64,000 bases of DNA from Polyangiales bacterium (GTDB lineage: Bacteria > Myxococcota_A > Polyangia > Polyangiales > CBDCBC01). Within the stretch, counting starts at the first letter, position 1. Each line of letters begins with the position of its first letter. Shown in pieces: positions 1,369 through 50,649 of the stretch. Where the stretch lies: contig OZ243942.1 in the NCBI GenBank assembly GCA_965214225.1, positions 712,298 to 776,297 on the forward strand, read 5' to 3'. Made by a program: the position numbers and the translations under genes. The notes beneath the pieces were generated by a model, which saw nothing but the letters and a program-made list of their open reading frames with translations, did not search any database and was not told where the DNA came from.

Positions 1369-1468
1369 GCACAGTGCTTGAATGCACACAGCGCTTGAAT
1401 ACACACAGCGCTTGAATACACACAGCGCTTGAATACACACAGCGCTTGAATACACACAGCGCTCGAAA
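1369..1468. repeat. 17-bp tandem repeat, ~6 units (acacacagcgcttgaat)
   Basis: Direct reading gives units at 1384, 1401, 1418 and 1435, plus degenerate units at 1369 and 1452. More degenerate copies (ctagagggcacagcact) extend back to ~1345. The array lies between two convergent gene ends. Confidence 0.95.
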
Positions 1469-1508
1469 ACCGACTCACCAGGGACTGACCAGATACACCT
1501 CTGGCTTG

Positions 1509-5440: not shown

Positions 5441-6445
5441 CTACGGCTGAAGTTCCTCTGCCCAGTGCAAAGCCGCCTCCATCCCACCGGCGTCTATTGT
5501 TCCTGCGGCCACTGCGTCGTACGCCACACCATGGTCGACGCTCGTCCGGACATATGGCAGCCCCCACGTCACATTCGCTGCGCTCTGCCAATCCAGAAGC
5601 TTTGATGCAATGGTGGCTTGGTCATGAAACATACAGACCGCACCACCGAACTCCCCCTGCGCTACGAGGCGCAGGGCGCTCTCTGCCCCCATCGGACCTC
5701 TAACCAGACGCCCTGACCCCCGGTGATGAAGCTCACTTACCGCTTCATCAATCGCCGGACGGATGGTTAGCGCTTCCTCATCCCCGAACAATCCCGACTC
5801 GCCTGCGTGGGGGTTGAGACCGCTCACCACAATCGGAAGCGGTACGCTAAGACGGCAGAGCGCCTCGTCTAGATGAACGACGGCACGCTTGACCCTCGAC
5901 GCCAGAAGCTCCCTTGGCACGTCGCGAAGAGCATGGTGTGTCGTCGCGAGCGCAAGCTTCAAGCGGCGTCCGAGAAACATCATTGTCACCGCATCCCGCT
6001 CGAGGCCGCATGACTCCGCCAGGTATTCGGTGTGACCGGTAAAGGGACTCCCCGCCATTGATATGGCGGCCTTGCTCACTGGTCCGGTGACAAGGGCGCC
6101 GCCGCGTTTGCGCACGAAGTGTGCAGCTGCCTGCAATGCGCGGAACTGGTGTTTACCCGAGTCTACATTAGGCGAAGGAACTTTCGCGCGTGCCGCTCGG
6201 CCTACGTCGATCAGTGTGACGGGTGCCCGCAACCGCAGCTCCAATTCTTCAAGAACGTCTGCTGGAACGATGTCGCCTTCCATGCCCAGACTCTTGAGTT
6301 GCTGCGCGTCCCCGAACACGACGTACTGAGATGCAGTGCCTGCCCGTCTTCTTTCGCGAAGCGCCTTTGCCGCGACATGAGGCCCTACGCCGTGCGGGTC
6401 GCCCACGGAAATTACGACCGGCACCCTACGCATTGTCCGAGCCAT
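5441..6445 (-). CDS. pdxA: 4-hydroxythreonine-4-phosphate dehydrogenase
   Basis: PdxA hallmarks are present: VVISVGDPHGVGPHV, GHTEYLAE, LNPHAGESG, FHDQATIASK. Length 334 aa. Confidence 0.9.
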   Translation of the reverse strand: MARTMRRVPVVISVGDPHGVGPHVAAKALRERRRAGTASQYVVFGDAQQLKSLGMEGDIVPADVLEELELRLRAPVTLIDVGRAARAKVPSPNVDSGKHQFRALQAAAHFVRKRGGALVTGPVSKAAISMAGSPFTGHTEYLAESCGLERDAVTMMFLGRRLKLALATTHHALRDVPRELLASRVKRAVVHLDEALCRLSVPLPIVVSGLNPHAGESGLFGDEEALTIRPAIDEAVSELHHRGSGRLVRGPMGAESALRLVAQGEFGGAVCMFHDQATIASKLLDWQSAANVTWGLPYVRTSVDHGVAYDAVAAGTIDAGGMEAALHWAEELQP

Positions 6446-7106
6446 TCCCTGCCCGATATCCCACTCCGCGTATGGTGTGTATCACTTCCGAAAGAGCTGG
6501 CGATTTCGCACGAAGCCTGCGGATGTGGATGTCCACGGTGCGGCTTTTTCTCACGTTACGCACCCCCCAAACGTGCTCAAGCAAAAGCTCCCGAGTAAAC
6601 ACCTGACCACGGCGAGCCAGAAGAAAGCTGAGCAAGTCAAACTCCCGTTGCGTCGTCGCTGCCTTCTGACCATCGACGAACAGTTCGCGTGAGGTGAGGT
6701 CAATGAACACACGACCGAGCTTCATCCGGCACGCGGAGCGGAGAGCGTCGTGCCGCCACTCAAGCCTGCGCAGACGAAGGTAGAGTTCCATAGGTTGGCA
6801 CGGCAGAACCACTACGTCGTCAAACGGCATGCTGGGAGCCAAGCGGGAAAGCCCCTCAGGGGCAACGGCGGCAAGAACTGGAACTCTCTCAGGTGGTCTA
6901 AGAGCTGCAAACAGGGCAAACACCTCGCGAGTGAGCGGGAACAACTCATCCACCTCCACACAGCACAAGGGCGGGGTCTGCAGCATCCGTAGCAGACCGG
7001 CCGAGAGTTCGTCGAGGGTCGCCGTTTCGTAGCTACAGCCAAGGGATGCGAGACTGTCTTCCACCCAAGACCTGCCCTCGCAGTTCTTAACGATCAGAAC
7101 TTGCAT
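6426..7106 (-). CDS. OmpR/PhoB-type winged-helix regulator with degenerate (pseudo-)receiver domain
   Basis: C-terminal trans_reg_C motifs (TQREFDLLSFLLARRGQVFTRELLLEHVWG...TVDIHIRRLRAK...IHTIRGVGYR). The N-terminal REC-like fold lacks the DD acidic pair (VLIVKNCEG) and the conserved Lys (LPC instead of KPF). Overlaps the pdxA start by 20 nt. Confidence 0.85.
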   Translation of the reverse strand: MQVLIVKNCEGRSWVEDSLASLGCSYETATLDELSAGLLRMLQTPPLCCVEVDELFPLTREVFALFAALRPPERVPVLAAVAPEGLSRLAPSMPFDDVVVLPCQPMELYLRLRRLEWRHDALRSACRMKLGRVFIDLTSRELFVDGQKAATTQREFDLLSFLLARRGQVFTRELLLEHVWGVRNVRKSRTVDIHIRRLRAKSPALSEVIHTIRGVGYRAGNGSDNA

Positions 7107-7284
7107 GCGAATGTGCGTCGAATCTCTCTATGTAGGAGTGCGTCCCTGCCCCATGCTGATCGCGACACTCCACCGGTTCCACCAGATCTCGCAGTATCAA
7201 CATTTGAGTGGAAGTCGAACCACTTATCGATGTGTCTACTTATGTGTTCTACCTAACCTATCGGTTGAACTACGTCCATCGCTG

Positions 7285-7547
7285 GTACTCGGTCAATCCC
7301 TGGTGAGTCGATTATCGAGGAGGTTGCATTCAAGCTCTGGAGTCGCAGGAGACGCAGTCGACGCCAACTCCACGCACCATTCCACCGGAGCGAAATGGCC
7401 CACCGGCGCGCGCTTAGGTGCGTGAGGATGGGGCGTAAGGACGGGGTTCAGCGACGGGATACAACGACGGGGTTCAGCGACGGGAGCCGAATGCACAATC
7501 TTCTCGGCAAGCGTGGCTTCCTGGTCGAAAAGCCACTGACCCGGTTG
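7285..7547 (+). mobile_element. MITE copy A (expanded, 263 bp) of a 3-copy hairpin element family
   Basis: Flanked by a perfect 9-bp direct repeat CCATCGCTG (7276-7284 and 7548-7556). The ends gtactcggtcaat / actgacccggttg are degenerate versions of the family TIR. The core aligns with copies at 16203 and 39838 and carries internal duplications. Confidence 0.8.
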
Positions 7548-7646
7548 CCATCGCTGAGCGCTTAGGATCTCCGGCGGCGGACGCCGCAAACCTTTCGTGT
7601 GCGTTGCGCGGCTCCGTGAAGTAGGCTTGAAGCCTGCTATTCGGGG

Positions 7647-9377
7647 ATGGACGTGGAAGAACGAGTCTGGAAGTTAGAAATTCACGATGTTGATGACCCG
7701 GATGACTACCAGACAATCAAAGTCACTGCGGGTCATTGGATGCAAGCTTTGGAGCGGGGAAGAGAGCAGCTAGGTGAAGAAGGGGCCGTGCCCACCGGGG
7801 CGAGTTGTTCCGTTTCGCATCCTGGTCGGGTCGTGGTACATGACCACCGGCACCGTCGTGTGTTCACGCTCACCACACTCATGGAGCAGCGCTCATCGCG
7901 ACAACGAACCTCGCGAGATTCGGCAAGTGTCGGCACACCAACAGCTCCTCGAACTACAAATAGCCGTAAAAGCCGTGGAGGAAAGCGGCCAGGATCGCTT
8001 CGTCCCTCTTCAAGTGCAATCCCCACCGCGTCAGCTTCCCGGCAGGATGCTGCTCACCCGAACACAGACATTGCCTCTCAGCCTGAGGAAGGCGCGATGA
8101 CCTACTCGATTCTAAGTCAGCGACGCCATCAACCCTCGGAGTTCACTCCCTTGGCCTACCGTGAAGTAGCCATAACAGTTGATCCTTCTCTCGCTAAAGA
8201 TGACCTGGCCGCACTGCTGCGCACGTGCCTCGATGCAACACAGCAGGACCTGTTAGGAGTTGAACCAGGACAGCTAGTAAAGATTGCCGCGTTCAGCCAG
8301 GCAGACCCCGACCCCCTGGGGACGCGTCCACTCGCCACTCTCGAGTGGAAAGATTGGGTAGGACGCGTGGAAGTGCATATGGGCAGAGTTGCGCCTGCCG
8401 GTGAGTCTGAGTCCATTGGACCGCAGGTGAAGAAGGTTTCAGACGACACCACGAAGGCACGTGTGGACCAGCCCAGACGCAGAGCGGCATCTTTCAAGGT
8501 GACTCAGCCATTCCCTGCCATTGCACCACCTGCTGCTGGAACTTCGGCTTTGAGTCCCAAGGTGGACCCTCCAAGTCGTAGCAAAGAAACGCCCCCTCCC
8601 GAAGTCGGGCCTCTTCCTAAAGCCGCCGTGGCCCAGACTTCAGCAGGCGGAAGCGGTGCAAGTGGCGGTCGAGAGCAGAAGGAAAAGACGCCAAAGAGTG
8701 CGGCTACCACTGCGTCAGCAGAACATCAGCAAGAAGTGGCCGGTGCCTCTTCCGACGTCACAGGGACCCAGGCGGAAGAGATAAGAAGCGTCTCCAGCAA
8801 CGCCTCTAGTGCAGTTCCTAGCAACATCTCCAATGCAGACGAACCTGACGACATACTAAGTGATGTCTTCGACTCTTGCCACGAGCTCTCTTATCAGCCC
8901 ACGCCTCTTGCCGGGTTCCAGTTCGCTGTCGGAGTTCTCAGCCACTACATCGCCTGCGAGCGTGTAACTGCGGCTATTTATGACATTGACGCGGATGAAC
9001 TGAGGGTTGTCGCCTCAAGCGACCGGTCCGCTGGAAATCTTCATGACACAGTTCCAGCCAGCAGAGGCCTCGTCCAGCGAGCGCTCTCCTCAATCGACCA
9101 AACCCTCCGAGTTGATGCCTGCCAAACCGAGGAAGCCTACGCCGCAGAGACCGATTCCTTAGGCGTCCACAATCCCCGCAATCTTCTTCTCGCCCGAGTC
9201 GCCAAGGGTCGTCATGTACTCGGTCTGCTCCACCTTGCTAACGCCAACAAAGGGGGTAACGCCGAAGATGGATTCACAGGAACCGACGAGGAGGTGGTCA
9301 AATATGTCGCGGAGCAACTCGGCCGTTTCATTGACGGCCGCAGAAAAAGCGCGATTCCCCCTGCGCCCCATCGATAG
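7647..9377 (+). CDS. GAF domain-containing protein with long low-complexity Pro/Ser/Ala-rich linker
   Basis: The C-terminal ~170 aa have a GAF-like pattern (FQFAVGVLSHYIACERVTAAIYDIDADELRVVASS...LLLARVAKGRHVLGLLHLANA). The central region is P/S/A/T-rich. Confidence 0.7.
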   Translation: MDVEERVWKLEIHDVDDPDDYQTIKVTAGHWMQALERGREQLGEEGAVPTGASCSVSHPGRVVVHDHRHRRVFTLTTLMEQRSSRQRTSRDSASVGTPTAPRTTNSRKSRGGKRPGSLRPSSSAIPTASASRQDAAHPNTDIASQPEEGAMTYSILSQRRHQPSEFTPLAYREVAITVDPSLAKDDLAALLRTCLDATQQDLLGVEPGQLVKIAAFSQADPDPLGTRPLATLEWKDWVGRVEVHMGRVAPAGESESIGPQVKKVSDDTTKARVDQPRRRAASFKVTQPFPAIAPPAAGTSALSPKVDPPSRSKETPPPEVGPLPKAAVAQTSAGGSGASGGREQKEKTPKSAATTASAEHQQEVAGASSDVTGTQAEEIRSVSSNASSAVPSNISNADEPDDILSDVFDSCHELSYQPTPLAGFQFAVGVLSHYIACERVTAAIYDIDADELRVVASSDRSAGNLHDTVPASRGLVQRALSSIDQTLRVDACQTEEAYAAETDSLGVHNPRNLLLARVAKGRHVLGLLHLANANKGGNAEDGFTGTDEEVVKYVAEQLGRFIDGRRKSAIPPAPHR

Positions 9378-13716: not shown

Positions 13717-14766
13717 CTACGGCCACATCGGCCAGGTTGAGAGTCCTGCCGTTTCCTCGAACCCCCACCGGACGTTCATGCATTGAATGGCCTGACCAGC
13801 GGCTCCCTTAATCAAGTTATCAATGGCGCCTTGAGCGATGAGCCTTCCTGTTCGCTCATCGTAGTCGTAACTCAGAATACAGGCGTTGCTCCCTCGGACC
13901 CAGCGCGTGTCCGGACTACGACCACGCAGAACGCGCACAAAGGGAGCGTCTTCATAGAAGGCCTCTGCCTCCGCTCGGATGTCTTCGATTTTCAACGCTT
14001 TCTTATGCGGCCGAGCGTAACAGACGCTGAGGATGCCACGAATAGCTGGCACGAGATGAGGCGTGAAGGTGACCGTCACCGGAGATCCACTCAGGCGCTG
14101 GAGGCTCTGCTCTATCTCCGGTATGTGACGGTGGATACCTCCTACCTTATACGCTCTAATACCCTCGGCCGCCTCGACGAAGTGTGTCGTGAGACTTGTA
14201 GCCCTTCCGGCGCCAGAGACCCCGCTCTTCGCGTCGATGATAATGTCTTCCGTAGATATGACGCCGTTAGCAACAAGAGGAGCAAGAGGAAGGACCGAGG
14301 CGGTGGGATAGCAGCCCGGCACCGAAATGATTTCTGCGTCTGGCAACTGGTCGCCGAAAAGCTCCACCAGGCCGTACACAGCCGCGTCGCTCAAGTGGGA
14401 GTCCGGCGGTTCGGCACCATACCAGTTGCGGTACGCTTGACCGTCGTCGAGTCGGAAGTCGGCGGAAAGATCTATGGGTACGATCTGTCGCTCGTAGAGC
14501 ACTTGAACTGCAGCCGCGCTCTGCCTGTGAGGGAGCGCACAGAAGGCAACATCGAGTCCTTCTCCCGCCGAGGGCGCATTCAGACTCTCGACAGATAGCT
14601 CAAGAAGCCCCTCCGCGTGCGGAAGTACTTCCTTTAAAGGCTGCCCCGCACTGCGCGCGCCAAAGATCGCCCGCAGCTCCGCGTGTGGATGGCGCATCAG
14701 CAGACGCACCAGCTCCGAGCCTACATAGCCTGAAGCCCCTACCACTCCGACACGTAAAGTCATCAA
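13717..14766 (-). CDS. argC: N-acetyl-gamma-glutamyl-phosphate reductase
   Basis: VGVVGASGYVGSELVRLL NAD-binding motif and catalytic PGCYPTA. 349 aa. Abuts the downstream gene with zero gap. Confidence 0.95.
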   Translation of the reverse strand: MMTLRVGVVGASGYVGSELVRLLMRHPHAELRAIFGARSAGQPLKEVLPHAEGLLELSVESLNAPSAGEGLDVAFCALPHRQSAAAVQVLYERQIVPIDLSADFRLDDGQAYRNWYGAEPPDSHLSDAAVYGLVELFGDQLPDAEIISVPGCYPTASVLPLAPLVANGVISTEDIIIDAKSGVSGAGRATSLTTHFVEAAEGIRAYKVGGIHRHIPEIEQSLQRLSGSPVTVTFTPHLVPAIRGILSVCYARPHKKALKIEDIRAEAEAFYEDAPFVRVLRGRSPDTRWVRGSNACILSYDYDERTGRLIAQGAIDNLIKGAAGQAIQCMNVRWGFEETAGLSTWPMWP

Positions 14767-14822
14767 TCAGAGCCTTAACGCAAACCAACGGCTTGTAACC
14801 AGCTATCGAATAATGTCATGAA

Positions 14823-14845
14823 CTTGCATTAATTGATGATGCAAG
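14823..14845. promoter_or_regulatory. AT-rich palindrome CTTGCAT-N9-ATGCAAG upstream of argC (candidate ArgR-type operator)
   Basis: Perfect 7-bp inverted arms with an AT-rich centre, 57-79 nt upstream of the argC start, in an otherwise GC-rich intergenic region. Loosely like an 18-bp ARG box. Not verified. Confidence 0.3.
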
Positions 14846-14872
14846 CATCAGGCACCTATGCAACCCTACCTC

Positions 14873-14974
14873 GTGCAGGGTGAACTCAGGTGCAGGGTGA
14901 ACTCAGGTGTAGGGTAAACTCAGGTGTAGGGTAAACTCAGGTGCAGGGTGAACTCAGGTGCAGGGTGAACTCAG
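14873..14974. repeat. 17-bp tandem repeat x6 (gtgcagggtgaactcag)
   Basis: Six contiguous units read directly; units 3-4 carry the variant gtgtagggtaaactcag. The array is bracketed by a 20-nt direct repeat, gcaacCctacctcgtgcagg (14860) and gcaacGctacctcgtgcaagg (14977). Confidence 0.95.
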
Positions 14975-15037
14975 GTGCAACGCTACCTCGTGCAAGGCCA
15001 ACTTCGGTGCCGGCTGAGCGCCAGAAAGATGGGCGAC

Positions 15038-15460
15038 CTAGCGTTTCGAGTACTGGAACTTCTTTCGCGCACCCGGCTGACCCGGCTTCTTTCGCTCCTT
15101 CTTGCGATCATCACGAGTCAGGAAGCCAGACTTCTTGAGTTGCGCACGCAACTCAGGGTCAACTTTGATGAGTGCTCGCGATATGCCGTGTCGAACGGCT
15201 TCGGCTTGCGCCGATGTCCCACCGCCCGAGGTGGTGCAGCGAACATCGAATTTCTCTGACTGATCGGTTTGGTCAAAAGCCTGTTGGATGATCATGCGCG
15301 ACGTCTCACGAGGGAAGTAGTTTTCAAGCGACCGTCCGTTAACGCTGAACGTGCCCGAACCCGGCATAAGAAACACACGCGCCACTGCAGTCTTACGTCG
15401 CCCTGTCGCGTACGTGACTGGGGGAGCTTTTACACTCGACTTCTGCTCACTCGGACTCAT
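15038..15460 (-). CDS. rpsI: 30S ribosomal protein S9
   Basis: [14 protein letters not shown] and C-terminal [10 protein letters not shown]. 140 aa. Confidence 0.97.
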
Positions 15461-15541
15461 CTAGTTTTACCTTCCACTCTTCCCGCAGCCTCGGTTTTGG
15501 AGGCTCATCAGTTTGCCAAGACGGCTATCTCCAATACCAAC

Positions 15542-16036
15542 TTACGACGCCTGCTTTTGCTGCGCCGCCGCCTCCTGTCCAGAACCCTCTTTGCCTTCAC
15601 TGGCACCTTGCCGGATGGGCAAGGCAGTAGGCTGTTGAGCGGCATGTGGATGTGCGCTGCCGGTATACACCCTCAGTCGAGTGCGCAAAAGGCGCCCCAG
15701 CCGGTTCTTGGGAAGCATGCCGTGTATCGCTTTTTCAACCACAAACGTCGGCTTCCTTTGCTGAAGGTGATCGTAGCGCTCCGCTTTGAAGCCGCCTGGG
15801 ATGCCCGAGTGCTTGTAGTAGTACTTCTTCTGCCACTTCTGTCCTGTGAGAACTACCGACTCGGCGTTGATGACGACGACCTCATCACCTGACTCGGCAT
15901 GAGGCGTGAATGTGGTCTTGTGTTTTCCGATAAGAAGCGAGGCCGCACGCGAGGCGAGCCTCCCTAGAGGGACACCTGCTGCGTCTAGAACCACCCAATG
16001 GCGATCTACGCCGCTTTTCTGCATAAAAGTCTTCAC
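15542..16036 (-). CDS. rplM: 50S ribosomal protein L13 (with ~20-aa C-terminal extension)
   Basis: GTG start at 16036 with GGAGGA 4 nt upstream. (V)KTFMQKSGVDRHWVVLDAAGVPLGRLAS matches the L13 N-terminus. The longer ORF to 16129 is unlikely. Confidence 0.95.
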   Translation of the reverse strand: MKTFMQKSGVDRHWVVLDAAGVPLGRLASRAASLLIGKHKTTFTPHAESGDEVVVINAESVVLTGQKWQKKYYYKHSGIPGGFKAERYDHLQQRKPTFVVEKAIHGMLPKNRLGRLLRTRLRVYTGSAHPHAAQQPTALPIRQGASEGKEGSGQEAAAQQKQAS

Positions 16037-16202
16037 GTAATCCTCCGTCGCCGTTATGACCTCTAATGCGAAGCTGTCAAGCGTCCCGATATCGATTCGA
16101 AGCGCAGGTGAAACCCAGCAGCGCAGCAACAGCGATGCCCCGCAACTGAATCGCCGAGACCGAAGGGGGGCTTCCTGAAAACTCCTAAAGGAAGCGAGAC
16201 CC

Positions 16203-16378
16203 GTATCCGGTCAGTCCCTGGCAAGTCGGTTTCCGAGGAGGTTGTGCACTCGAGCGCGCCCGCAGAACCCCACCGGAGCGCACTTAGGTGCGCGAGGATG
16301 GGGTTTGAGAACGTAAGCCGAGTGCGCAACCTCCTCGGGAAGCGTACATTCCTGGTCAGGGAACCACTGACCGGTTAC
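16203..16378 (+). mobile_element. MITE copy B (176 bp)
   Basis: TIRs are gtatccggtcagt and actgaccggttac (12/13 complementary). A perfect 9-bp TSD GCGAGACCC lies at 16194-16202 and 16379-16387. The whole element folds into one long imperfect hairpin. Confidence 0.9.
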
Positions 16379-16488
16379 GCGAGACCCTCTGCAGATGGGC
16401 TCATCCTGCTACTCGGTACAAGTTCTAGATGCGATTGCCCGGAGCGAGCGGCACAGCATCGGGCATGGGCTGTGCTAGAGTCCGTTCG

Positions 16489-17085
16489 ATGGCTTTGGAT
16501 CAACCGATTGAGAGGTGGCTGACGTTGCCTGCTCTTCTCCTGCCCTTCCTCGCCACGGCTCTACCGCCTCTGAAAGTTTCTGCGGCACAGCCCGCAACCC
16601 TTATTTGCCGCGCCTCGCAAAACGGAGAGCCTGCTGCGGCATCAGTGTCTTTCAGTGGATCTGGATCCCATCAAGGTGAGCAGCGCTGCACATCCGCGGT
16701 TCGAGCCAAGGCCGGTACGTACGATGTGACCGTGACGCTGCACGGGACAGTGGATACACCGTCTGTGAAGCGCAAGGTGACATTGCCTGCCGGCCGAAGA
16801 ACCGTCGTCTCTGCCGCTTTCTCCACCGGCGAACTGCAAGTGGGGGTTGAGTCGGACGGGAGAGCAGCCTCCGGGATGGCCGAGGTCTACCGCGGCAAGG
16901 AACGCGTGGCGATCATCGGCGGCAACGTCCGCGTGAGGATCTCGGCCGGCAGGTACGATCTCGTGGTCAAGCATCACCATCGTGCGTGTGCAGCGGTTCC
17001 TGTCGCGGTGCATGAGGGTAAGAGAACCGAGGTCTCGGCCGCTTTTTCCGCTGAGGATTGCCGCACCCGAATGACTTCGCCCTAG
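16489..17085 (+). CDS. hypothetical secreted protein with repeated beta-sandwich-like modules
   Basis: Signal-like N-terminus (LTLPALLLPFLATALPPLKVSAA). Internal repeats AGTYDVTVTLHG and AGRYDLVVKHH. The competing antisense ORF 16642-17415 looks non-coding. Confidence 0.5.
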   Translation: MALDQPIERWLTLPALLLPFLATALPPLKVSAAQPATLICRASQNGEPAAASVSFSGSGSHQGEQRCTSAVRAKAGTYDVTVTLHGTVDTPSVKRKVTLPAGRRTVVSAAFSTGELQVGVESDGRAASGMAEVYRGKERVAIIGGNVRVRISAGRYDLVVKHHHRACAAVPVAVHEGKRTEVSAAFSAEDCRTRMTSP

Positions 17086-17276: not shown

Positions 17277-19922
17277 ATGCGTTCAGAGGAACAACAACTC
17301 CCTCCCTCGATGAGCGAGCCAAGAGAAGAAGCGGGTCCAGCTCCTTATCGACCGATCGGCATCCTCCGGTGGTTCTACCAGAGGTTTTTCTCCCACATTC
17401 ACGTGGACGCGACATGGAAGCAGGCAGTCCTCGGTGCTGCCGAGCGAGGAACGGTCGTCTACGTGATGCGCTCGCTCTCGCTGCTTGATTTCCTCTGCCT
17501 CGACTTTCTTCTCAAACGGTTTGCCTTACCTCTGGTGCGTTTCGTCAACGACTTCGGTCTTTGGATACTGGAACCATTTAAGGGCGGCAGGCGGTGTGTC
17601 ATGCGGCGGCAAGTGCCAGAGGAGGTTGCCTTATCAGAGGCCGTCAGAGGAGGCTACAGCGCCCTTCTCTTCCTGCGCCGGCCACCTCCCCTGGCGCGGC
17701 GGCTTCGAAACAGACGAGGGGAAGCTTTCGAGGCTGACCTTCTCCTACAGCTAATTCAGGTGCAGCGTCGACAGGACAGGAGCATCCTGCTTGTGCCGCA
17801 GACCTTCGTCTGGAGCAAAAGGCCTAACCGAGCACAAGCCACATTCACCGACCTGCTCTTCGGTCCAACGGAGTGGCCGGGCCGGCTTCGCGTGCTCTTC
17901 CAGTTTCTGTTCAACTACCGCAACGCGCTTCTCCGTGCAGGGGAGCCGTTCGACCTCAAATCGTTCGTCGACCGGCACGCACATCTATCTGACGCAGACG
18001 TTGCTCAGAAGGTGCGCTACGCCCTGCTAAAGCGGCTCGAGCGTGAGCGCACCCTAGTGCTAGGCCCTACGAAGAAGAGTCCTCAGCGCATCCGCGACGA
18101 GCTCCTGCGCAGCCACCGCGTAGCCAAACACATTGAAACCACTGCCCGCACGCAGCGAAAGACGGTTGACCAGGTAAAGAAGGAGGCGGCAGCTGAGCTA
18201 CAGCGTCTTTGCGCTGCACCGAGCCCCATGGTTGTCGGATTCATGCACCGCTTCCTAAGGTGGCTGCTCCATCGCATGTACCAAGCGGTGGTTGTGGACA
18301 CCGAAGGAATGGAACGGGTGCGTCTGGCCGGGCGCGAGGGAACGCTCGTGCTGATTCCTAGTCATAAGAGCCACATGGACTACCTGGTTCTCAGCGAGGT
18401 AATGTACGCCCATGCGCTCTCTCCACCTCTGATCGCTGCCGGAGACAACCTTAACTTCTGGCCCGTTGGGGGCCTTCTACGACGTGGAGGTGCATTCTTC
18501 ATCCGAAGGGCTTTCCGTGGACGCAAACTCTACAGTGCGCTGGTGGAGGCCTATATCCGCAAGCTGATAGCAGAAGGCTTCAGCATTGAGTTCTTCTTTG
18601 AAGGCGGCCGCTCACGCACCGGTAAGCTACTGCCCCCTAAGCTCGGCCTGCTGTCGATGATCGTGGACGCCGCCATGCTGGTCCGTACACGCCCCATCTT
18701 CATCGTGCCGGTCTACATCGGCTACGAGCGCGTCGTGGAGGAGCGCTCCCACCTTCGTGAAGTGGAGGGAGGCGAGAAACGAAAGGAGAGCCTCGCAGGT
18801 CTTCTTCGTGCACCGAAGGTCGTTAAATCAAAGCATGGCAAGCTGTACGTGCAGTTTGGCACGATTCTCTCCCTTGATAATCTCGTCAAAGAGGCTGCTG
18901 AATGCCGCCCCGCAACCTCATCTTGTAAGAAGCCGCATGCGCCGGACAGTGAAGGATCGCGTCCGCGCCTCACGCCATCGCAAAAGCGCAGCTTGGTGCA
19001 GAAAACAGCCCGTGAGGTAGGTTACCTCATCAACCGCGTTGCGGTGGCAACACCCTCGAGTATCGCTGCAACTGCTCTGCTGGGTCACCGTCGACGTGGC
19101 TCGTCGCAGTCGACATTCTTCGAAGCGTGCCGCTTCCTACACAAGGAACTAATCAAAGTGGGCGCCGAGGTAGCCAGCTCGCTCACAGATGAAGAAGGCG
19201 AGCTCGCCTTAGCTCCCATACTCGAGAGCTTGAACCTCTTCGCGCAAGGCAAAGTGCTGCAAATCCACGAATCGCAGGAACAGCCGATATATGTGGTCTC
19301 GGAGGAAAAACGCCTAACCCTCGAATTCTACAAGAATAACATCCTTCACTTTTTTGTCCCAAAGGCCATCGTGGCAACCTCTGTCTATGCGACAGCGTCC
19401 CGGGCTTCGTCCTATGCGCTGGTCGCAGAGCATGCGACGCGCCTCTCTGAACTTCTTCGACAAGAGTTTACCTTCTCAACGCGCGCTACATTTACCGCTA
19501 CCTTCGAGGCGCAACTCGATCAGCTTCTGGCGGAGCATTATCTCGTCGAGACAGACGATGTGCTTTTTCCAGCAGGAGGCGAGAAAGGGCGTGAGCTGCG
19601 CTGGTACAGTTACATGTTGCGGCCCTACTTGGAGGCTTACCGTCTCGCACTGCTAAGTCTCAAGGGTCAGGCCGACAAGGAGCTCGGCACCCGAGATTGG
19701 ACCAGGAAGGCTTTGGCCTTCGGTCGCAGAATGTATCTTCTCGGCGAGATCGAGTGCCGCGAGGCCTTAGCGCGTCCAAAGTTGGATAACGCGTTGATCG
19801 CCTTTCGAGATCTTGGTTTGGTTGACATCTCTCAAGCCGGCAAGACATCTAAGTTCCGGGTACTGGAAAGCTCCAAGTGGGAAGAGACGAGCGCAGAACT
19901 CGATGCGTACCTACATGTCTAA
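17277..19922 (+). CDS. plsB: glycerol-3-phosphate acyltransferase
   Basis: HX4D acyltransferase motif (PSHKSHMDYLV) and FFFEGGRSRTGKLLPPK. 881 aa, typical PlsB size. Confidence 0.9.
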   Translation: MRSEEQQLPPSMSEPREEAGPAPYRPIGILRWFYQRFFSHIHVDATWKQAVLGAAERGTVVYVMRSLSLLDFLCLDFLLKRFALPLVRFVNDFGLWILEPFKGGRRCVMRRQVPEEVALSEAVRGGYSALLFLRRPPPLARRLRNRRGEAFEADLLLQLIQVQRRQDRSILLVPQTFVWSKRPNRAQATFTDLLFGPTEWPGRLRVLFQFLFNYRNALLRAGEPFDLKSFVDRHAHLSDADVAQKVRYALLKRLERERTLVLGPTKKSPQRIRDELLRSHRVAKHIETTARTQRKTVDQVKKEAAAELQRLCAAPSPMVVGFMHRFLRWLLHRMYQAVVVDTEGMERVRLAGREGTLVLIPSHKSHMDYLVLSEVMYAHALSPPLIAAGDNLNFWPVGGLLRRGGAFFIRRAFRGRKLYSALVEAYIRKLIAEGFSIEFFFEGGRSRTGKLLPPKLGLLSMIVDAAMLVRTRPIFIVPVYIGYERVVEERSHLREVEGGEKRKESLAGLLRAPKVVKSKHGKLYVQFGTILSLDNLVKEAAECRPATSSCKKPHAPDSEGSRPRLTPSQKRSLVQKTAREVGYLINRVAVATPSSIAATALLGHRRRGSSQSTFFEACRFLHKELIKVGAEVASSLTDEEGELALAPILESLNLFAQGKVLQIHESQEQPIYVVSEEKRLTLEFYKNNILHFFVPKAIVATSVYATASRASSYALVAEHATRLSELLRQEFTFSTRATFTATFEAQLDQLLAEHYLVETDDVLFPAGGEKGRELRWYSYMLRPYLEAYRLALLSLKGQADKELGTRDWTRKALAFGRRMYLLGEIECREALARPKLDNALIAFRDLGLVDISQAGKTSKFRVLESSKWEETSAELDAYLHV

Positions 19923-25588: not shown

Positions 25589-25672
25589 TTGTTAGGCAGC
25601 TAAGTACGATTGTTGGGCAGCTAAGTACGATTGTTGGGCAGCTAAGTACGATTGTTGGGCAGCTAAGTACGA
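25589..25672. repeat. 21-bp tandem repeat x4 (tgttgggcagctaagtacgat)
   Basis: Four contiguous units read directly. The array ends 19 nt before the start of the next gene (25692). Confidence 0.95.
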
Positions 25673-25691
25673 TGACTCGAGAGGATAACTT

Positions 25692-26579
25692 ATGGCATAT
25701 TCGGGGAGTGAAGTGGCAACTGCCGTAAGACTAAAGCTTGGTGAAGCGCTTGCTGCACTTCAATCAAGTCCAGATGTTCCCGAGGAGGTCATGGAGGTCG
25801 CGCAGAACATTGCTCAAGCGGTGGGCGCTTTGTTCGAGGCCGCTCAGGCAGAGGCTGAACGGCAGGGAAAGAAGCTGGTGCAGCGTGCGCTTGGCTCACT
25901 TAGTCAAACGCTAGCGCTGTTGCAGGAGACGCCCAAAGCGCACCCCGCAATCGAAACAACAACCCAAACGATTGCTGAAGCAATGACGACTCTCTTTAGG
26001 TTGTCTTCTACTCCCTCAGAACCTGCTGCAGCTCATCCGTCGGAGGCGAATGCTTTTTCGGCACCCAGTTCTACTGCAGCAAGACGGTCGGCTGTGAGTG
26101 CACCTGTTTCTCAAGCTCCCGAAAGCAGACCTGTACAAAACCAACCTCCCATCGGTCAGCCCAACCAGATTTCACCTTCCTACTCGGCGCCGCTGGAAAG
26201 TGCATCTAAAGCACCCGTTGCACAGCAAGAGTCACCTGTTGTCGAAGGTGCATCAGAGTATGTGGAAGTCAATGTAGGAGCCAGCACAGACTCTAACTTC
26301 TACGTGGGCTTTAGCGGAGAGGTGAGCGAGGGCGGCATATTCGTATCGACTTATCAGCTCCTTCGAAAATCAACACCTGTTGACGTTCTGATTACTTTTC
26401 CAGGGGGATTTGAGATTAGAGCTCATGCTCATGTAGCTTTTGTGAGGGACTCACAAGGCGCATCGGATGAGGAAGCACCTCCGGGCATGGGTTTGGCTTT
26501 TGAATCTTTGAACCAAGAGCAACGGGAACTTATTTTGCGTTTCATCAGGAAGCGACCGCCCATGTTCTACGACGTATAA
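25692..26579 (+). CDS. PilZ/TIGR02266-type domain protein (paralog 1)
   Basis: GAGAGGA Shine-Dalgarno sequence. The C-terminal domain (VNVGASTDSNFYVGFSGEVSEGGIFVSTY...PPGMGLAFESLNQEQRELILRFIRKRPPMFYD) matches the myxobacterial paralogous PilZ-like family pattern. Confidence 0.75.
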   Translation: MAYSGSEVATAVRLKLGEALAALQSSPDVPEEVMEVAQNIAQAVGALFEAAQAEAERQGKKLVQRALGSLSQTLALLQETPKAHPAIETTTQTIAEAMTTLFRLSSTPSEPAAAHPSEANAFSAPSSTAARRSAVSAPVSQAPESRPVQNQPPIGQPNQISPSYSAPLESASKAPVAQQESPVVEGASEYVEVNVGASTDSNFYVGFSGEVSEGGIFVSTYQLLRKSTPVDVLITFPGGFEIRAHAHVAFVRDSQGASDEEAPPGMGLAFESLNQEQRELILRFIRKRPPMFYDV

Positions 26580-26690
26580 TGGCAGACAGGGTGGGTGAGC
26601 GATTCTTGTTCTCAGTGACGGCGGTTGAAGGATGAAGGACAGGAGCGCGATGAAATCTCGCAAGATCGTCAGCTTTGCGAAGGGGATCCG

Positions 26691-27446
26691 ATGACAGCCG
26701 AGCAGGAAATTCAAGAGCGTAAGCAGGCCGGGCTCGCCATGAGTCACATAGCATCAGCGCTTGCTGAGCTTGGGCAGCCTGCTCCTCAAGAGGCGGTTTC
26801 TGAAATCAAGTCAACCCTGAACCAGTCGGTGGGCGCGCTCAATAGTTTTCTTCAGACGGGAACGGAGCGAAAGTTTCTCGACGAGTCGTATAGGCTTATG
26901 GGAGTAGCACGTGAACTTCTAACTTCTGTTGAAGAAGAAGCGTGCCGCAAAGCACTTGAGTCTGTTACCCGAGGCTTGGCGGTGCTCCATCCTGTCACCA
27001 CGCCATCCGAACCGACGCCTGAAGAGAAAGATGCGGCGAAGCGGCGGCGAGTCATGAGTCGCCAACGAATTGAGAGCCAGCAAGAGATTCAAGTGTCCAG
27101 TGGAGCAGACCGCCGCTCCCAGACGCGTGTGTTCATCGACACCGAGGTTAGCTTTGAAAGCGACTCGAATTTCTACACAGGATTTACCGAGGACTTATCA
27201 GACGGTGGATTGTTTGTAGCTACCTATAATCTGAGGCCAGTAGGCACGGTGATTGAAATGTCTTTTACTCTAGCTGACGGATACGTCATCAACACCCAGG
27301 GCGTGGTCAAGTGGGTTCGAGACCTCAATGAAGGGTCCGATGCGCTTCCAGGAGTGGGTATAGAGTTTGAGCAGTTGGAAGATCCGGACAAAGCGGCCAT
27401 AGATAAGTTTATCAACCGCCGCGATCCCATCTTTTACGATGAGTGA
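26691..27446 (+). CDS. PilZ/TIGR02266-type domain protein (paralog 2)
   Basis: Same architecture as 25692-26579 (VSFESDSNFYTGFTEDLSDGGLFVATY...LPGVGIEFEQLEDPDKAAIDKFINRRDPIFYDE). ATG 26691 has a better-spaced SD (gaagggga) than ATG 26625. Confidence 0.75.
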   Translation: MTAEQEIQERKQAGLAMSHIASALAELGQPAPQEAVSEIKSTLNQSVGALNSFLQTGTERKFLDESYRLMGVARELLTSVEEEACRKALESVTRGLAVLHPVTTPSEPTPEEKDAAKRRRVMSRQRIESQQEIQVSSGADRRSQTRVFIDTEVSFESDSNFYTGFTEDLSDGGLFVATYNLRPVGTVIEMSFTLADGYVINTQGVVKWVRDLNEGSDALPGVGIEFEQLEDPDKAAIDKFINRRDPIFYDE

Positions 27447-27463
27447 CATGAGTAGACTTGACA

Positions 27464-27479
27464 CTGAACCTTTGTTCAG
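27464..27479. promoter_or_regulatory. candidate LexA (SOS) box CTGAAC-CTTT-GTTCAG
   Basis: Perfect 6+6 palindrome of the GAAC-N4-GTTC class, 16 nt upstream of the imuA ATG. imuA-imuB cassettes are classically LexA-controlled. Confidence 0.6.
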
Positions 27480-27494
27480 TATTATGCATCTGCA

Positions 27495-28235
27495 ATGCAC
27501 CTTCCTTCAGTGTCCATAAGCAGTCGCCGTGACATTCCTTCTACATCTGGGTACCCGCTTCCTGATCCTGCACCTTTAGATATCGGCGTAACCAGTCCAT
27601 CGGCACCAATAGATGGTGTGCTGGTGGACGGCACATTGGCTGGCAAGCCTGATCCCGTCCTGTCTTATTCTATACGTGATGCCATACCTGAAAGCCGTCT
27701 TAGCGAGCTTTCAGGAGCGTGTGCTTCCGCTGCTGCCTCACTTATTGTGTCCACACAGCAGCTTGGAAAGCTTGTTGCCTATGTGCATCTTGGTCAGAGC
27801 ACGTTCTATCCTCCAGACCTGCAGCACGCCGGCATTGATCTAGATTCGCTTCTGTTTGTTAGTGTTTCTAAAAGCATACAAACCATGCAGGCCACGGAGA
27901 TTCTGCTCAAGTCTGGAGCTTTCTCACTCATCGTTGTTGATCTAACCGGAGCGCAACCTCCTCGCCATTCTTCAACATGGCAGGGTCGATTGCTTGCACT
28001 TGTGCGAGCTCACCACAGCCGCGTGGTCTTCTTAACTTCTAAGAATGCAAATGATTGCTCTCTTGGTTCGCTAATCAGCACCCATCTTTTTCTATTCGCT
28101 CACTATACCCTTTCAGATGCTTGCAATCGCTCAAGAACAGAAGTTCGATTCAGCAAAGATAAGCTCGGCATAAGGAGTAAGTTTGGCAACCGTTCTCCCA
28201 GATGCGAAAGACTTAGACTTCTCCGATCATGGTGA
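27495..28235 (+). CDS. imuA: ImuA-like SOS mutagenesis protein (RecA-fold, SulA/ImuA family)
   Basis: RLSELSG....AA..L, FYPPDLQHAGIDLDSLLFV, EILLKSGAFSLIVVDL and W.GRLLALVRAHHSRVVFLT match the ImuA pattern. Located directly upstream of imuB. Confidence 0.75.
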   Translation: MHLPSVSISSRRDIPSTSGYPLPDPAPLDIGVTSPSAPIDGVLVDGTLAGKPDPVLSYSIRDAIPESRLSELSGACASAAASLIVSTQQLGKLVAYVHLGQSTFYPPDLQHAGIDLDSLLFVSVSKSIQTMQATEILLKSGAFSLIVVDLTGAQPPRHSSTWQGRLLALVRAHHSRVVFLTSKNANDCSLGSLISTHLFLFAHYTLSDACNRSRTEVRFSKDKLGIRSKFGNRSPRCERLRLLRSW

Positions 28236-28287
28236 CGGCGGGACTGGACTTAGAACGATTCAATACAGCTCAGAGTGAGGCATAGGC

Positions 28288-29898
28288 GTGAGTCAGAGTG
28301 TCGCTTGTATTTACCTTCCTTCGTTTATGCTCCAATGGTCGTTGCGCGACTATTGGAAGCAGCCAGTGCAGCCTTCAGCCACAGTCGCTGAAGATCAGCC
28401 CACAGCCCCCTTGATCGACCTTAATCGCTGCGCACGCAGACTTCACCTTCACCACGGCATGAAGCAAAGCACGGCACGGTTGCTCGTGCCTTCCCTGCGC
28501 GTAGCTTGCGTCACTGCAGAAGGCACCGAACAAGTGTTAGAGGCGTTTTCTAGGAAGCTCTTAGTATTCTCTCCGCACGTGCATCAATGTGAGGCCATTC
28601 CTGGTGCATTTTTCTTCGATATTGCAGGACTGAGCTACCTCTACGCAACGCCCCAAGCATGGATTGAGGCTGTGAGCTGTTTCCTTGAAGAAGAGCGCTT
28701 ACATGCGCGAGCGGCTATTGGTTACACACGTCATCGCACATTTGCTGTGGCAACCGCTTATGCGGGCAAACGGGTGCTAAGCGCACGCGATGAACAACTT
28801 CTTTCTCAGAATGTGCCCATAGCAAAGCTGCCCTTTCCAGATTGGCTGAAACAAGAATGCCATCTACTTGGGATCCAGAAGGTGGCTGATTGGCTTTCAC
28901 TGGAGCGAGGTGAGGTGCTTGCTCGTTTGGGCAAAGAGGCCAGTGAACTGTTCGATTTCTTAGAAGGTTCACGCCCCTCCTCCATGCATCGTGTCGTTCA
29001 TCTCGAGGCTCCTCGTGTGCACCGAGAAATCGACCCTCCTGATGAAGACGTTCAGCGACTTTTGTTCACGCTAAAGAATGCTCTAGATGAACTTATTAAA
29101 ATCACTCAAGGGCGACTGCAAAAGATCCAGCGCCTGATCATCAAGCTTGAACTGGAACGGCATGAACCACATGTTCTAACCATTTCGCCTGCCGACCCTA
29201 CGTGTGATGTAACTGTGCTCATGGATCTGCTGCGGCTACACACACAAAAAGTTGATCTATCTTCAGGTGTTGAAGGAGTCATTGTAGAGGCTGAGTCTGC
29301 TGATGGCGAAAGTTACCAACCCTGGTTACTAGGTCAGCCTGTTCGCTACGATAAAGACGCTGCCAACCGCGCTGTTGCACGCCTCAGAGCTGCATTTGGT
29401 AATGACGCAGTCTCCGTGGCAGCCTCTAAAGAGGCTCACCTACCTGAAGCACAGTACTGCTGGAAAAGAGTAGACCATGTTAATGATCCCACGCCCTGTC
29501 TACCAGCCACCATGCAACCCCAAATTCGCCGCATTTTATCTAAGCCTCACCTTCTTAGTTCTTCGCAATTAAGATCATTGGAACTATGCGAAGGTCCTTT
29601 ACGGTTAAGTGGGGGATGGTGGGCAAGCACAACCACCCGCGACTACTACTACGCACTTCCCAAACCCTTGGAAGGCAAAACAGATCGTGAGCTGCGGTGG
29701 GTGAACGTACACTCTCATCCAGGATCTTCCTTGCTGAAACAACCCACCAAGGTAGCAGCTAGATTCAAAGGCGGTGCAGACGAGACAAGCAGTGCAGCTA
29801 GTGTAATAAGCAAGCCCGAGTGCGAATGTGCTCACTTCTACTGGATATTTTTTGACAAGAAGCGGAAGCGTTGGTTTCTCCACGGATGGTACGGGTAG
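28288..29898 (+). CDS. imuB: ImuB-like Y-family DNA polymerase paralog
   Basis: N-terminal ACIYLPSFMLQWSLR typical of ImuB. 536 aa. GTG start with GTGAGG SD. Gene order imuA-imuB. Confidence 0.8.
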   Translation: MSQSVACIYLPSFMLQWSLRDYWKQPVQPSATVAEDQPTAPLIDLNRCARRLHLHHGMKQSTARLLVPSLRVACVTAEGTEQVLEAFSRKLLVFSPHVHQCEAIPGAFFFDIAGLSYLYATPQAWIEAVSCFLEEERLHARAAIGYTRHRTFAVATAYAGKRVLSARDEQLLSQNVPIAKLPFPDWLKQECHLLGIQKVADWLSLERGEVLARLGKEASELFDFLEGSRPSSMHRVVHLEAPRVHREIDPPDEDVQRLLFTLKNALDELIKITQGRLQKIQRLIIKLELERHEPHVLTISPADPTCDVTVLMDLLRLHTQKVDLSSGVEGVIVEAESADGESYQPWLLGQPVRYDKDAANRAVARLRAAFGNDAVSVAASKEAHLPEAQYCWKRVDHVNDPTPCLPATMQPQIRRILSKPHLLSSSQLRSLELCEGPLRLSGGWWASTTTRDYYYALPKPLEGKTDRELRWVNVHSHPGSSLLKQPTKVAARFKGGADETSSAASVISKPECECAHFYWIFFDKKRKRWFLHGWYG

Positions 29899-29905
29899 GC
29901 AGCTT

Positions 29906-35640: not shown

Positions 35641-35694
35641 CAGTAGTCGAGCTGCTGGCCCAGTCAAGCTGCTGGCCCAGTCAAGCTGCTTGCT
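35641..35694. repeat. 17-bp tandem repeat x3 (cagtcaagctgctggcc)
   Basis: Units at 35641 (20 nt variant), 35661 and 35678. The last unit overlaps the ku stop codon (35693-35695) by 2 nt. Confidence 0.9.
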
Positions 35695-36619
35695 AACTTG
35701 CAGAGGCCTTACGGCGCTTGTTGGACTTCGCCGCTCTTGACTTGCTAGGAGGCTTCAAAGCGTCGGCTTTCTTCTCCGTGGTCCTGCTCTTCTTCGTGGT
35801 CCTGCTCTTCTTCGTGGTCGGTTTCTTCTCCGCAGGTTCTGTCGCATCGAGGCTCGCCCTAAGTGCGTTGAAGAGGTCGATGACCTGCGCCTTAGGCGCA
35901 GCCGCAGGCTGCTTGACCTCTTGCCCCTCAGCCTTAGCTTCGATAGCGCTCAACACCCGCTTCCGATAGGTATCCTCGTACTTCTTTGGCTGAAAAGCTG
36001 CGGCTGTGAGCTGGTCAACCAGTTGGTCTGCAAGCTTTTGCTCTTCGGCTTTAAACTTAACTTCCTCACCTAGCTCAACGTCTTTAAAAGACCGCACCTC
36101 GTTGGCATGAAACAGCTGATGAAGTATAAGGCCCTCCTCGTAGGGCCGAACCATCACCAGTTGCTCTTTTCCCCGCGTGTGGAACCGACCCACCGCCACA
36201 GTCTGCGTGTCAATCATCGCCTGCCGGAGCAAGCGATAAGCGCGTGAACCGCCCTTGTCGGGACCTAAGTAGTACGATTTGTCAACGTAGAGCAGGTCAA
36301 CCGTCTCCTGAGGGACAAACTCCGCAATCTCCAACTGCTTGCTCTTTTCTCCCTCGAGCGCAGCAAGCTCCTCTTCATCGAGCTGAACGTACTGGTCCTT
36401 CGCAACCTCGAAGCCCTTTACGATTTCATCCCTACCGACCACTTCGTCGTGCACCGGGCAGTAAAGCTGCTGTTTGAGTCTGCTGCCGCACCCTTTGTGG
36501 AGCTGGTTGAAGCGCACCTGCTGAGAAGATGCTGCCGTGAACAGCTTTACGGGGATGGCTACAAGGCCAAAGGATAGTGTGCCGGAGCTTACAGCGCGAG
36601 CGGCCATGGACGTAAGCAT
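35693..36619 (-). CDS. ku: NHEJ DNA end-binding protein Ku
   Basis: AVSSGTLSFGLVAIPVKLFTAAS Ku N-terminus and Lys-rich C-terminal tail. Start chosen at ATG 36619 (GAGGA 9 nt upstream); the ORF-track start at 36784 is unlikely. Confidence 0.92.
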   Translation of the reverse strand: MLTSMAARAVSSGTLSFGLVAIPVKLFTAASSQQVRFNQLHKGCGSRLKQQLYCPVHDEVVGRDEIVKGFEVAKDQYVQLDEEELAALEGEKSKQLEIAEFVPQETVDLLYVDKSYYLGPDKGGSRAYRLLRQAMIDTQTVAVGRFHTRGKEQLVMVRPYEEGLILHQLFHANEVRSFKDVELGEEVKFKAEEQKLADQLVDQLTAAAFQPKKYEDTYRKRVLSAIEAKAEGQEVKQPAAAPKAQVIDLFNALRASLDATEPAEKKPTTKKSRTTKKSRTTEKKADALKPPSKSRAAKSNKRRKASAS

Positions 36620-36850
36620 ACCGCATTTCCTCTGGCTGAGACCAAACTTCCGGCGGAAGGCGCCTCCGGGTGCACGATCAGATTGAGAAGAGGGTACATA
36701 CGAGACGGTTTTTGAGGGGTCGTGCCTTCGCCGCAGCGTCCCGTGATCCTGTGGGTCAAGTAGACGCGGGAGATGACTACGCACCCCTCATTCATGTTAC
36801 TTTGAGCGGATGATCTTACACGACCCACTTTATCGCACCTCCACCAACCC

Positions 36851-37267
36851 TTGAGCTACGTCAGCTCTGAAAAGCGCGCTGAACTTGAAGCTCGTCTGCT
36901 ACGGCTTGGCGTCAGGGAGGAGGAGCTCAGCGAGAAGTTTATCCGGGGAGGGGGACCGGGAGGGCAAAAGATCAACAAAACCTCAGTAGCCGTTCAACTG
37001 ATCCACCTTCCGACTAAAACGGAGGTGCGAGTGCAAAGCTCACGCTCCCAAGCGACCAACCGCTTCCTTGCGAGGCGCCGTCTAGCGGAGCTTTTAGAAG
37101 CTGAGAAAGAGGAGCACCTTAGCAAGCAAGCTAGGGAGCGCGCTAAACTGCGGAAGCAGAAAAGAAGGCGCAGCAAGCGCGCCAAAGACAAAGTCATTCA
37201 AGCTAAGAAGCAAGTAGGAGAGAAAAAGCGGCTAAGGCAGAAGGTGAACAAGCATGGTGACGACTAA
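36851..37267 (+). CDS. RF-1 domain (GGQ motif) peptidyl-tRNA-hydrolase-like protein
   Basis: GGPGGQKINKTSVAVQL GGQ motif with a basic C-terminal tail (KLRKQKRRRSKRAKDK). 138 aa. TTG start. The 3' end overlaps the ligD start by 14 nt. Confidence 0.8.
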   Translation: MSYVSSEKRAELEARLLRLGVREEELSEKFIRGGGPGGQKINKTSVAVQLIHLPTKTEVRVQSSRSQATNRFLARRRLAELLEAEKEEHLSKQARERAKLRKQKRRRSKRAKDKVIQAKKQVGEKKRLRQKVNKHGDD

Positions 37268-39803: not shown

Positions 39804-39837
39804 ATGCCCCGTGCTGATCCGTCGAGTCCGAACCAAG

Positions 39838-40013
39838 GTAACCGGTCAGTCCCTGGTTAGTCGGTTTTCGAGGAGGTTGTGCATTCGAGTGCGCCCGCAG
39901 AACCCCACCGGAGCGCACTCAAGTGCGCGAGGATGGGGTTTGAGGACGTAAACCGAATGCACAGCCTCCTCGGGAAGCGTCCTTTCCCGGTCGGAAAGCC
40001 ACTGACCAGTTAC
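39838..40013 (+). mobile_element. MITE copy C (176 bp)
   Basis: TIRs are gtaaccggtcagt and actgaccagttac. A perfect 9-bp TSD CGAACCAAG lies at 39829-39837 and 40014-40022. Collinear with copy B over its full length. Confidence 0.9.
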
Positions 40014-40106
40014 CGAACCAAGAGCTCAGCTAGGTAGTGCCTCCCGAGGTCATCGAGATCCACCGAGGCATCTAAAACGTCGAAACGCTGACTGGGACGC
40101 CTTGCG

Positions 40107-47840: not shown

Positions 47841-47986
47841 GTTACTCCGACCACTGAGTTACTCCGACCACTGAGTTACTCCGACCACTGAGTTACTCCG
47901 ACCACTGAGTTACTCCGACCACTGAGTTACTCCGACCACTGAGTTACTCCGACCACTGAGTTACTCCGACCACTGAGTTACTCCGA
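47834..47986. repeat. 17-bp tandem repeat x9 (ccactgagttactccga)
   Basis: Nine exact contiguous units followed by decaying copies to ~48040. Unit 1 contains the last two codons and the TGA stop of the methyltransferase gene (cac cac tga). Confidence 0.97.
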
Positions 47987-48292
47987 CCACTGAATCACGC
48001 GGGTAACTGAATCACATCGACCGCTGAGTCACATCGACTTCTGGCCACGGTGCGTCCCTCTGCCCGCTGCGCCTCGCCAGACTACGATAGATAACCGGTT
48101 TGGGCTGACGGATGTGTAGAGGCTGGAGCGTGTAGCGGTGTGAGCTCGTCGCTATGCTGCTGTCATTACCACACCACTTATGACAAATGCCATAAATGGC
48201 GTGGGACTTGCTGGTTCCACCTGCACGCATCAATCGCACCTGGGTGAGCCGTGCTAGGGTGGCAGGATGCTTGCGCGAACGGTGGCGGTTCG

Positions 48293-50424: not shown

Positions 50425-50649
50425 ATTGTTGCCAAAATCCGTCCTCGGAATGTTTTGTGCACGTAGGCAATCGCATCTAGCTTTGGGGGCAGTGATGAAT
50501 CGTCTTGATCTAGTGGCGACGCACTTTGGAAGGGCCGTGCGTCGTGTTGGCCAGCCGGGGTGACCTGCTTGAGCGCAGACGCATCGCCGTGGCTGGCCCG
50601 CGGGCCGATACATCGCCGCTCACTCAGCGGGACCCACCGTCCTTTGGAC

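Follow-up and report, generated by a model that had tools for sequence, protein, structure and literature searches.

A hairpin-forming 176-bp element with 9-bp target-site duplications in a Polyangiales genome, very probably a MITE, and a candidate partner in the IS66 family

The DNA analysed here, called the window throughout, is a 64-kb stretch of a Polyangiales genome with a base composition of 50-62% G+C. A 176-bp sequence, termed copy B, occupies the interval between rplM (15542-16036, minus strand; Pfam L13) and an ORF on the plus strand (16429-17085) that has a signal-peptide-like N-terminus and no Pfam match. A previous sequence-only reading had placed copy B between rplM and a putative secreted-protein gene, and had given two further copies, A and C, elsewhere in the window; this context was confirmed, and the coordinates and sequences of all three copies check out on re-reading. 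The copies occupy unrelated loci. Copy A has a response-regulator gene (6426-7106, minus strand) on one side and a 576-aa ORF (7647-9377, plus strand) on the other, while copy C begins 35 nt past the stop codon of ligD (37254-39803), with a convergent gene on its far side. The copies and the repeats that flank them are as follows.

16203-16378, plus strand: putative MITE, copy B, the reference copy; 176 bp, rod-like fold
16194-16202: left target-site duplication of copy B, GCGAGACCC, identical to 16379-16387
16379-16387: right target-site duplication of copy B, GCGAGACCC
7285-7547, plus strand: putative MITE, copy A, the most divergent; 263 bp, some 87 bp of which are additional internal sequence
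7276-7284: left target-site duplication of copy A, CCATCGCTG
7548-7556: right target-site duplication of copy A, CCATCGCTG
39838-40013, plus strand: putative MITE, copy C; 176 bp, 88% identity to copy B
39829-39837: left target-site duplication of copy C, CGAACCAAG
40014-40022: right target-site duplication of copy C, CGAACCAAG
1462-1496, minus strand: truncated fourth copy, the left 35 nt only (GTATCTGGTCAGTCCCTGGTGAGTCGGTTTTCGAG), read from 1496 to 1462
1370-1467, minus strand: tandem array of a 17-nt unit, 5.8 units, continuing the truncated fourth copy

All three full copies are bracketed by exact 9-bp direct repeats whose sequence is different each time. The perfect duplications proposed earlier for B, A and C were thus confirmed, each of them exact at the element boundaries, where the chance of an exact 9-mer match is 3.8e-6 per copy. 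In copies B and A, no match continues beyond the flanking 9-mers, and the duplication is therefore 9 bp and not 8 bp. In an alignment, B and C run collinear with 21 differences over 176 positions (approximately 12%), and copy A has its ends and core in common with both. The extra internal sequence of copy A, which includes a short tandem duplication at 7440-7484, extends the length range of the full copies to 176-263 bp.

Searches of the 64-kb window with the conserved blocks recovered exactly three full copies, with none expected by chance. The earlier description of a three-copy family therefore stands for the full copies, but it overlooked the truncated fourth copy at 1462-1496, which was found by a left-end search and has neither a right end nor a duplication. 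The truncated copy runs into the 17-nt array at 1370-1467, the unit of which resembles the internal TGTGCATTCGAGCGC of the full elements, so that the region 1370-1496 looks like a MITE fragment that may have seeded a tandem repeat.

The window is also unusually rich in other intergenic tandem arrays, with unrelated units of 17-18 nt (21 nt in one case), at 14873-14979, 47833-47993, 52823-52892, 52937-52993, 35645-35690, 35770-35819 and 25589-25673. The array at 47833-47993 consists of 9.5 perfectly identical units, and that at 14873-14979, between argC and rpsI, is bracketed by the direct repeat TGCAACSCTACCTCGTGCA. On a larger scale, a unit of approximately 270 bp occurs twice in tandem at 50649-51194 (95-97% identical); each unit contains the palindrome GAGGGTCTGGGTGCCAGACCCTC, and the two overlap two ORFs that have no Pfam match. 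In addition, the region 25600-29900 has a G+C content of 50-54% and a third-codon-position G+C of 0.41-0.54, compared with about 0.65 elsewhere. Its genes specify a pair of PilZ-domain proteins, together with a RecA-like protein (27495-28235) and a polymerase-like protein of the impB/mucB type (28288-29898); the arrangement is reminiscent of an imuA-imuB mutagenesis cassette and may be the result of horizontal transfer.

The ends and the internal stems of copy B are located as follows.

16203-16215, plus strand: left terminal inverted repeat, GTATCCGGTCAGT; fits the ISBst12-group motif GT[AG][ATG]NNNNTCA[GC]
16366-16378, minus strand: right terminal inverted repeat, GTAACCGGTCAGT on the minus strand
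16235-16252, plus strand: 5' arm of the 18-bp stem, gaggaggttgtgcactcg; pairs with 16319-16336
16319-16336, plus strand: 3' arm of the 18-bp stem, cgagtgcgcaacctcctc
16278-16293, plus strand: apical hairpin GCGCAC-TTAG-GTGCGC, conserved in all three copies

The 13-nt terminal inverted repeats attributed to copy B are present, but their pairing is imperfect: GTATCCGGTCAGT and GTAACCGGTCAGT are complementary at 12 of 13 positions, as are the ends of copy C, and the repeats are degraded in copy A. Likewise, the 18-bp stem exists but consists of 17 Watson-Crick pairs and one G-T pair. The view of the whole element as one long rod was borne out for copy B, for which the RNA fold reached -112.5 kcal/mol against -64.1 +/- 4.1 kcal/mol for shuffled sequences (z = -11.8), and the DNA fold reached -60.5 kcal/mol (z = -10.5). 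The foldback is preserved in all three full copies, and in copy A the apical hairpin is maintained through G-U changes. Between the stems of B and C, two pairs have changed on both sides from C-G to T-A, five have changed on one side to G-U, and four have been lost, chiefly in the outer, subterminal part. The three-way consensus fold comprises 62 pairs, six of which have changed on both sides. Read as plus-strand RNA, every one of the three copies folds 12-16 kcal/mol more favourably than the same pairs do on the minus strand; the reason is that the mismatched positions give G-U (5, 5 and 11 pairs) instead of A-C.

Taken together, these data indicate that the element is very probably a MITE, that is, a 176-bp non-coding, non-autonomous DNA transposon. 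This assignment follows from its short length, which at 176-263 bp falls within the span of about 50-600 bp that characterizes bacterial MITEs, its inverted repeats, its lack of coding capacity, its dispersal (three full copies and a truncated one within 64 kb) and the separate 9-bp duplication that accompanies each full-length insertion. With respect to coding capacity, the longest open frame and the three-copy alignment had no match among 5.8 billion proteins, and blastx of the elements against IS66-type transposases returned no coding remnant and nothing meaningful. Across the three insertions, all 27 duplicated base pairs are still identical on the two sides, even though B and C diverge at 12% of positions; if that divergence had arisen after insertion, duplications as intact as these would be expected with P ~0.03. 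The copies thus appear to have diverged before they inserted, which would imply several active source lineages and fairly recent insertion.

The conserved hairpin also raises the question of whether these copies have been maintained for a function, either as genes for a structured non-coding RNA or as cis-regulatory RNA hairpins, with flanking repeats that are incidental or a by-product of their spread. The survival of the hairpin across diverged copies through the two C-G to T-A double changes between B and C, the six doubly changed pairs of the three-way alignment and the folding advantage of the plus strand would all suit such an origin, as would the position of copy C and the truncated copy directly after stop codons, in the orientation of the gene. 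However, an RNA gene cannot explain three different exact 9-bp duplications at exact boundaries, the ends match a transposon end motif, and copy A has taken up an 87-bp internal insertion. Moreover, Rfam gave no match in the whole window at gathering thresholds and none across copy B at E <= 1, and scans in and next to all three copies found no promoter-like site and no convincing terminator-like site. The covariation is drawn from three sequences only, too few to test selection and therefore anecdotal, and the same pattern could arise if a DNA palindrome were repaired with its hairpin as the template. We therefore consider an RNA gene very unlikely; the earlier preference for transposition over a conserved RNA gene is supported by the distinct duplications, the inverted repeats and the Rfam result. 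A long, stable and imperfect palindrome that is intergenic and present in multiple copies could also recall a REP/BIME-like or IS200/IS605-type palindrome mobilized in single-stranded form by an HUH (Y1) transposase. To our knowledge, IS200/IS605 and REP/RAYT elements lack terminal inverted repeats and insert without duplicating the target site, whereas inverted repeats and duplications are both present in three of three full copies here, and no HUH transposase or RAYT gene was recognized among the 54 ORFs of the window screened with Pfam. Such an element is thus excluded for practical purposes, its probability being extremely small.

As a MITE, the element is of an ordinary kind of mobile DNA, and its family is one that, in our searches, had not been described before. 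When one genome per species was scanned with a 20-nt pattern taken from the left end, 19 matches appeared where about 35 were expected; because the agreement was confined to the 20 nt, these matches are attributed to chance, and no family member was found among them. The left-end and right-end patterns had zero matches in JGI metagenomes, a pattern scan of viral contigs had zero, and a sensitive BLAST search of plasmids likewise had zero. Related genomes were approached through PlsB (17277-19922), the nearest relative of which is 61% identical; the named neighbours of PlsB are metagenome-assembled genomes of Myxococcota, Sandaracinaceae and Polyangiales. One relative conserves the gene order Metallophos, argC, rpsI, rplM, plsB, with only 74 bp between rplM and plsB versus 1.24 kb here. 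No related sequence was found at the relatives' loci, including the rplM-plsB spacer of this syntenic relative. The short spacer is consistent with gain in the present lineage, the relative being too distant for its spacer to count as an empty site. In addition, a literature search found no described myxobacterial MITE.

Several small elements of other bacteria offer comparisons. Correia elements of Neisseria, ERIC/IRU elements of enterobacteria and RUP elements of Streptococcus are short foldbacks that lie in untranslated regions and give transcripts long stem-loops; they have other ends and other duplications (TA in the case of Correia). The likeness of the present element to Correia, ERIC and RUP in an effect on RNA is conjecture. 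MITEAba12 of Acinetobacter is, like the MITE described here, small and non-coding, with inverted repeats, a 9-bp duplication and multiple copies near genes, and its partner insertion sequence was inferred only from matching ends and duplication length, as is done below (PMC6382973). The two are unrelated in sequence: MITEAba12 is 113 bp long and AT-rich, with ends GGCTTTGTTGCA and an IS5/IS903-type partner, while the element studied here is rich in GC, measures 176 bp and is self-complementary over nearly its whole length.

Concerning the enzyme that would move this MITE, the earlier reading had reported no transposase with such ends in the window. This observation was borne out by the Pfam screen of 54 ORFs and by an end search: no longer element carrying the MITE ends was found within the 64 kb, and no IS66-family transposase (NF033517 / PF03050) was found among the 54 ORFs. 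The sole transposase, which the earlier reading had left unmentioned, belongs to the ISAs1 family (58281-59273, minus strand; NCBIfam NF033564, 290 bits) and was rejected as a partner, since the end read for its element, CAGGGCTATCGC, is unrelated to those of the MITE and the two show no sequence similarity.

Some further features surround this ISAs1 insertion sequence, which lies in the region 57024-59370 and has one end, CAGGGCTATCGC, at 59368. A PIN-domain gene (57445-57840, minus strand) is enclosed by two direct copies of a 175-nt repeat, at 57024-57195 and 58128-58300, which are 83-97% identical, and the second of these copies overlaps the 3' end of the ISAs1 transposase gene.

On balance, the most likely partner is a single-ORF insertion sequence of the IS66 family (ISBst12 group), a candidate that we offer as a lead rather than as a proven assignment. 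It is favoured because the MITE ends fit the terminal motif of the group, GTAA....TCAG. IS66-family elements begin with GTAA, and ISfinder lists duplications of 8-9 bp for the family. The motif was derived from eight single-ORF IS66-family elements sampled from plasmids together with ISDge4, a single-ORF element of the ISBst12 group that has the ends GTGACTACTCAGCA / GTAACTGCTCAGCA and an 8-bp repeat (PMC12898284). Two of the sampled transposases, those of ISGka4 on pHTA426 and of Rhodococcus JS3073, matched NCBIfam NF033517, and most of the others were classed by the record label "IS66 family transposase". The sampled elements are listed below.

ISGka4 on pHTA426, 14107-15741: ends GTATCTATTCAGCCC / GTAACTATTCAGCCC; 8-bp duplication, GACGAGTT
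B. thuringiensis pLM4 element: ends GTAACTACTCAGCTT; no duplication readable
Chlorohelix element: ends GTAACAATTCAG; 8-bp duplication
Rhodococcus JS3073 element: ends GTAACTGGTCACGT; 8-bp duplication
Niveispirillum element: ends GTAATTGCTCAC; 8-bp duplication
ISAva2: ends GTAAGGATTCAGGT; 8-bp duplication
Paraburkholderia element: ends GTAACTATTCAGCG; 8-bp duplication
D. wulumuqiensis element: ends GTAACTGCTCAGCA; 8-bp duplication

The ends of these elements have in common GTAA at positions 1-4 and TCAG or TCAC at positions 9-12, and the MITE ends GTATCCGGTCAGT, GTAACCGGTCAGT, GTAACTGGTCAGT and GTATCTGGTCAGT share both blocks with them. B and C carry the motif at each of their ends and the truncated copy carries it at its single end, whereas in copy A it is degraded. 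A random end fits it at a rate of ~2e-4 (about once in 5,000), a figure to be read with the fact that the motif was recognized partly after the fact. The agreement with the Rhodococcus JS3073 element extends to all of the first 11 bases (11/11), and the asymmetry between the two ends, GTAT versus GTAA, is the same in the MITE and in ISGka4. Past the first 12-13 nt, the likeness ceases: the interior of the MITE showed no similarity to the sampled elements and transposases, which are distantly related, and the ISBst12-group elements are 1.45-1.65 kb long and encode a transposase, whereas the MITE has 176 bp and no coding remnant.

Two observations made during this sampling deserve mention in their own right. 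The element at 14107-15741 of pHTA426 belongs to the IS66 family and is labelled "ISGka4 family" by NCBI, while ISGka4 is also the name of an ISLre2-family element that makes 9-bp repeats (PMC8024623); the two usages should not be confused when duplication lengths are compared. In a plasmid of Deinococcus sp. KNUC1210 (614-2615), three right-end-like sequences (ending at 2124, 2478 and 2615) lie beside an ISBst12-type element; they fit GT[AG][ATG]NNNNTCA[GC] and may be solo ends or small derivatives of the ISBst12 group.

The length of the duplication is the point on which the MITE departs from the ISBst12 group. An 8-bp duplication was found in ISDge4 and in all seven sampled elements with readable flanks, compared with 9 bp in three of three MITE copies; an IS66-family partner would therefore need a 9-bp stagger instead of the usual 8-bp one. 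This discrepancy speaks for a different 9-bp DDE family, such as ISLre2, IS4/IS10, the IS903 group of IS5, IS1 or ISAs1, as the source of the transposase, and the presence of an ISAs1-family transposase in the same window adds to it. However, the ends of the MITE are unlike those of every alternative family that was checked. IS1 ends in GGTGATG and IS4 in CT..., both of which differ from the MITE ends, and the ISAs1 copy of the window, with its CAGGGCTATCGC end, shows no similarity to the MITE. For ISLre2, the one example examined, a degraded ISLre2-type pseudogene on pHTA426, has the ends GTGAGTAAAAT / GTCAGTCAAGA, which do not match those of the MITE. Nine base pairs is the duplication typical of IS4 and ISLre2 elements (PMC8024623) and likewise of the IS903-type ISAba12 and of MITEAba12, but the latter two end in GGCTTTGTTGCA (PMC6382973). 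We thus regard mobilization by one of these other families as possible but rather unlikely, and the IS66 family continues to be the favoured candidate.

If this MITE moves as its structure suggests, a DDE transposase encoded elsewhere in the genome would act on it in trans, recognizing the 13-nt terminal inverted repeats (GTAWCYGGTCAGT). Insertion would follow cuts staggered by 9 bp, at targets that share no evident consensus, and gap repair would yield the 9-bp direct repeats. Where the near-perfect foldback body landed in a UTR, it would add a very stable hairpin to the transcript. The strand bias of the mismatches is a hint of selection, acting either on a transcript of the plus strand or on DNA in single-stranded form. 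It is conceivable, though in our opinion doubtful, that the foldback itself is selected, either as a plus-strand UTR hairpin involved in stabilization, processing or termination, or because an IS66-type transposase with a 9-bp stagger needs a hairpin or single-stranded form. Were either case of selection true, it would be the first instance of a transposase of the ISBst12 group being functionally tied to a structured MITE.

Copy C provides an example of the genes that such insertions adjoin. The region 35693-39803 comprises a Ku gene (35693-36784, minus strand) and a gene for a full three-domain LigD (37254-39803, plus strand), which together form a non-homologous end-joining locus, and the MITE lies directly behind ligD. 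Taken over the three full copies, the insertions have put strong hairpins beside rplM, ligD and a response-regulator gene, and expression of these genes could change as a result; a regulatory role of the copies is conjecture. In practice, the relevance of the MITE lies mainly in annotation, as it yields spurious ORFs.

The new family belongs to a deep, uncultured lineage of Myxococcota. Our literature search found no described MITE derived from IS66. Thus, if the link to this family holds, the element would be a documented MITE for a poorly characterized group of transposases, and the group would be shown to be able to use a 9-bp stagger.
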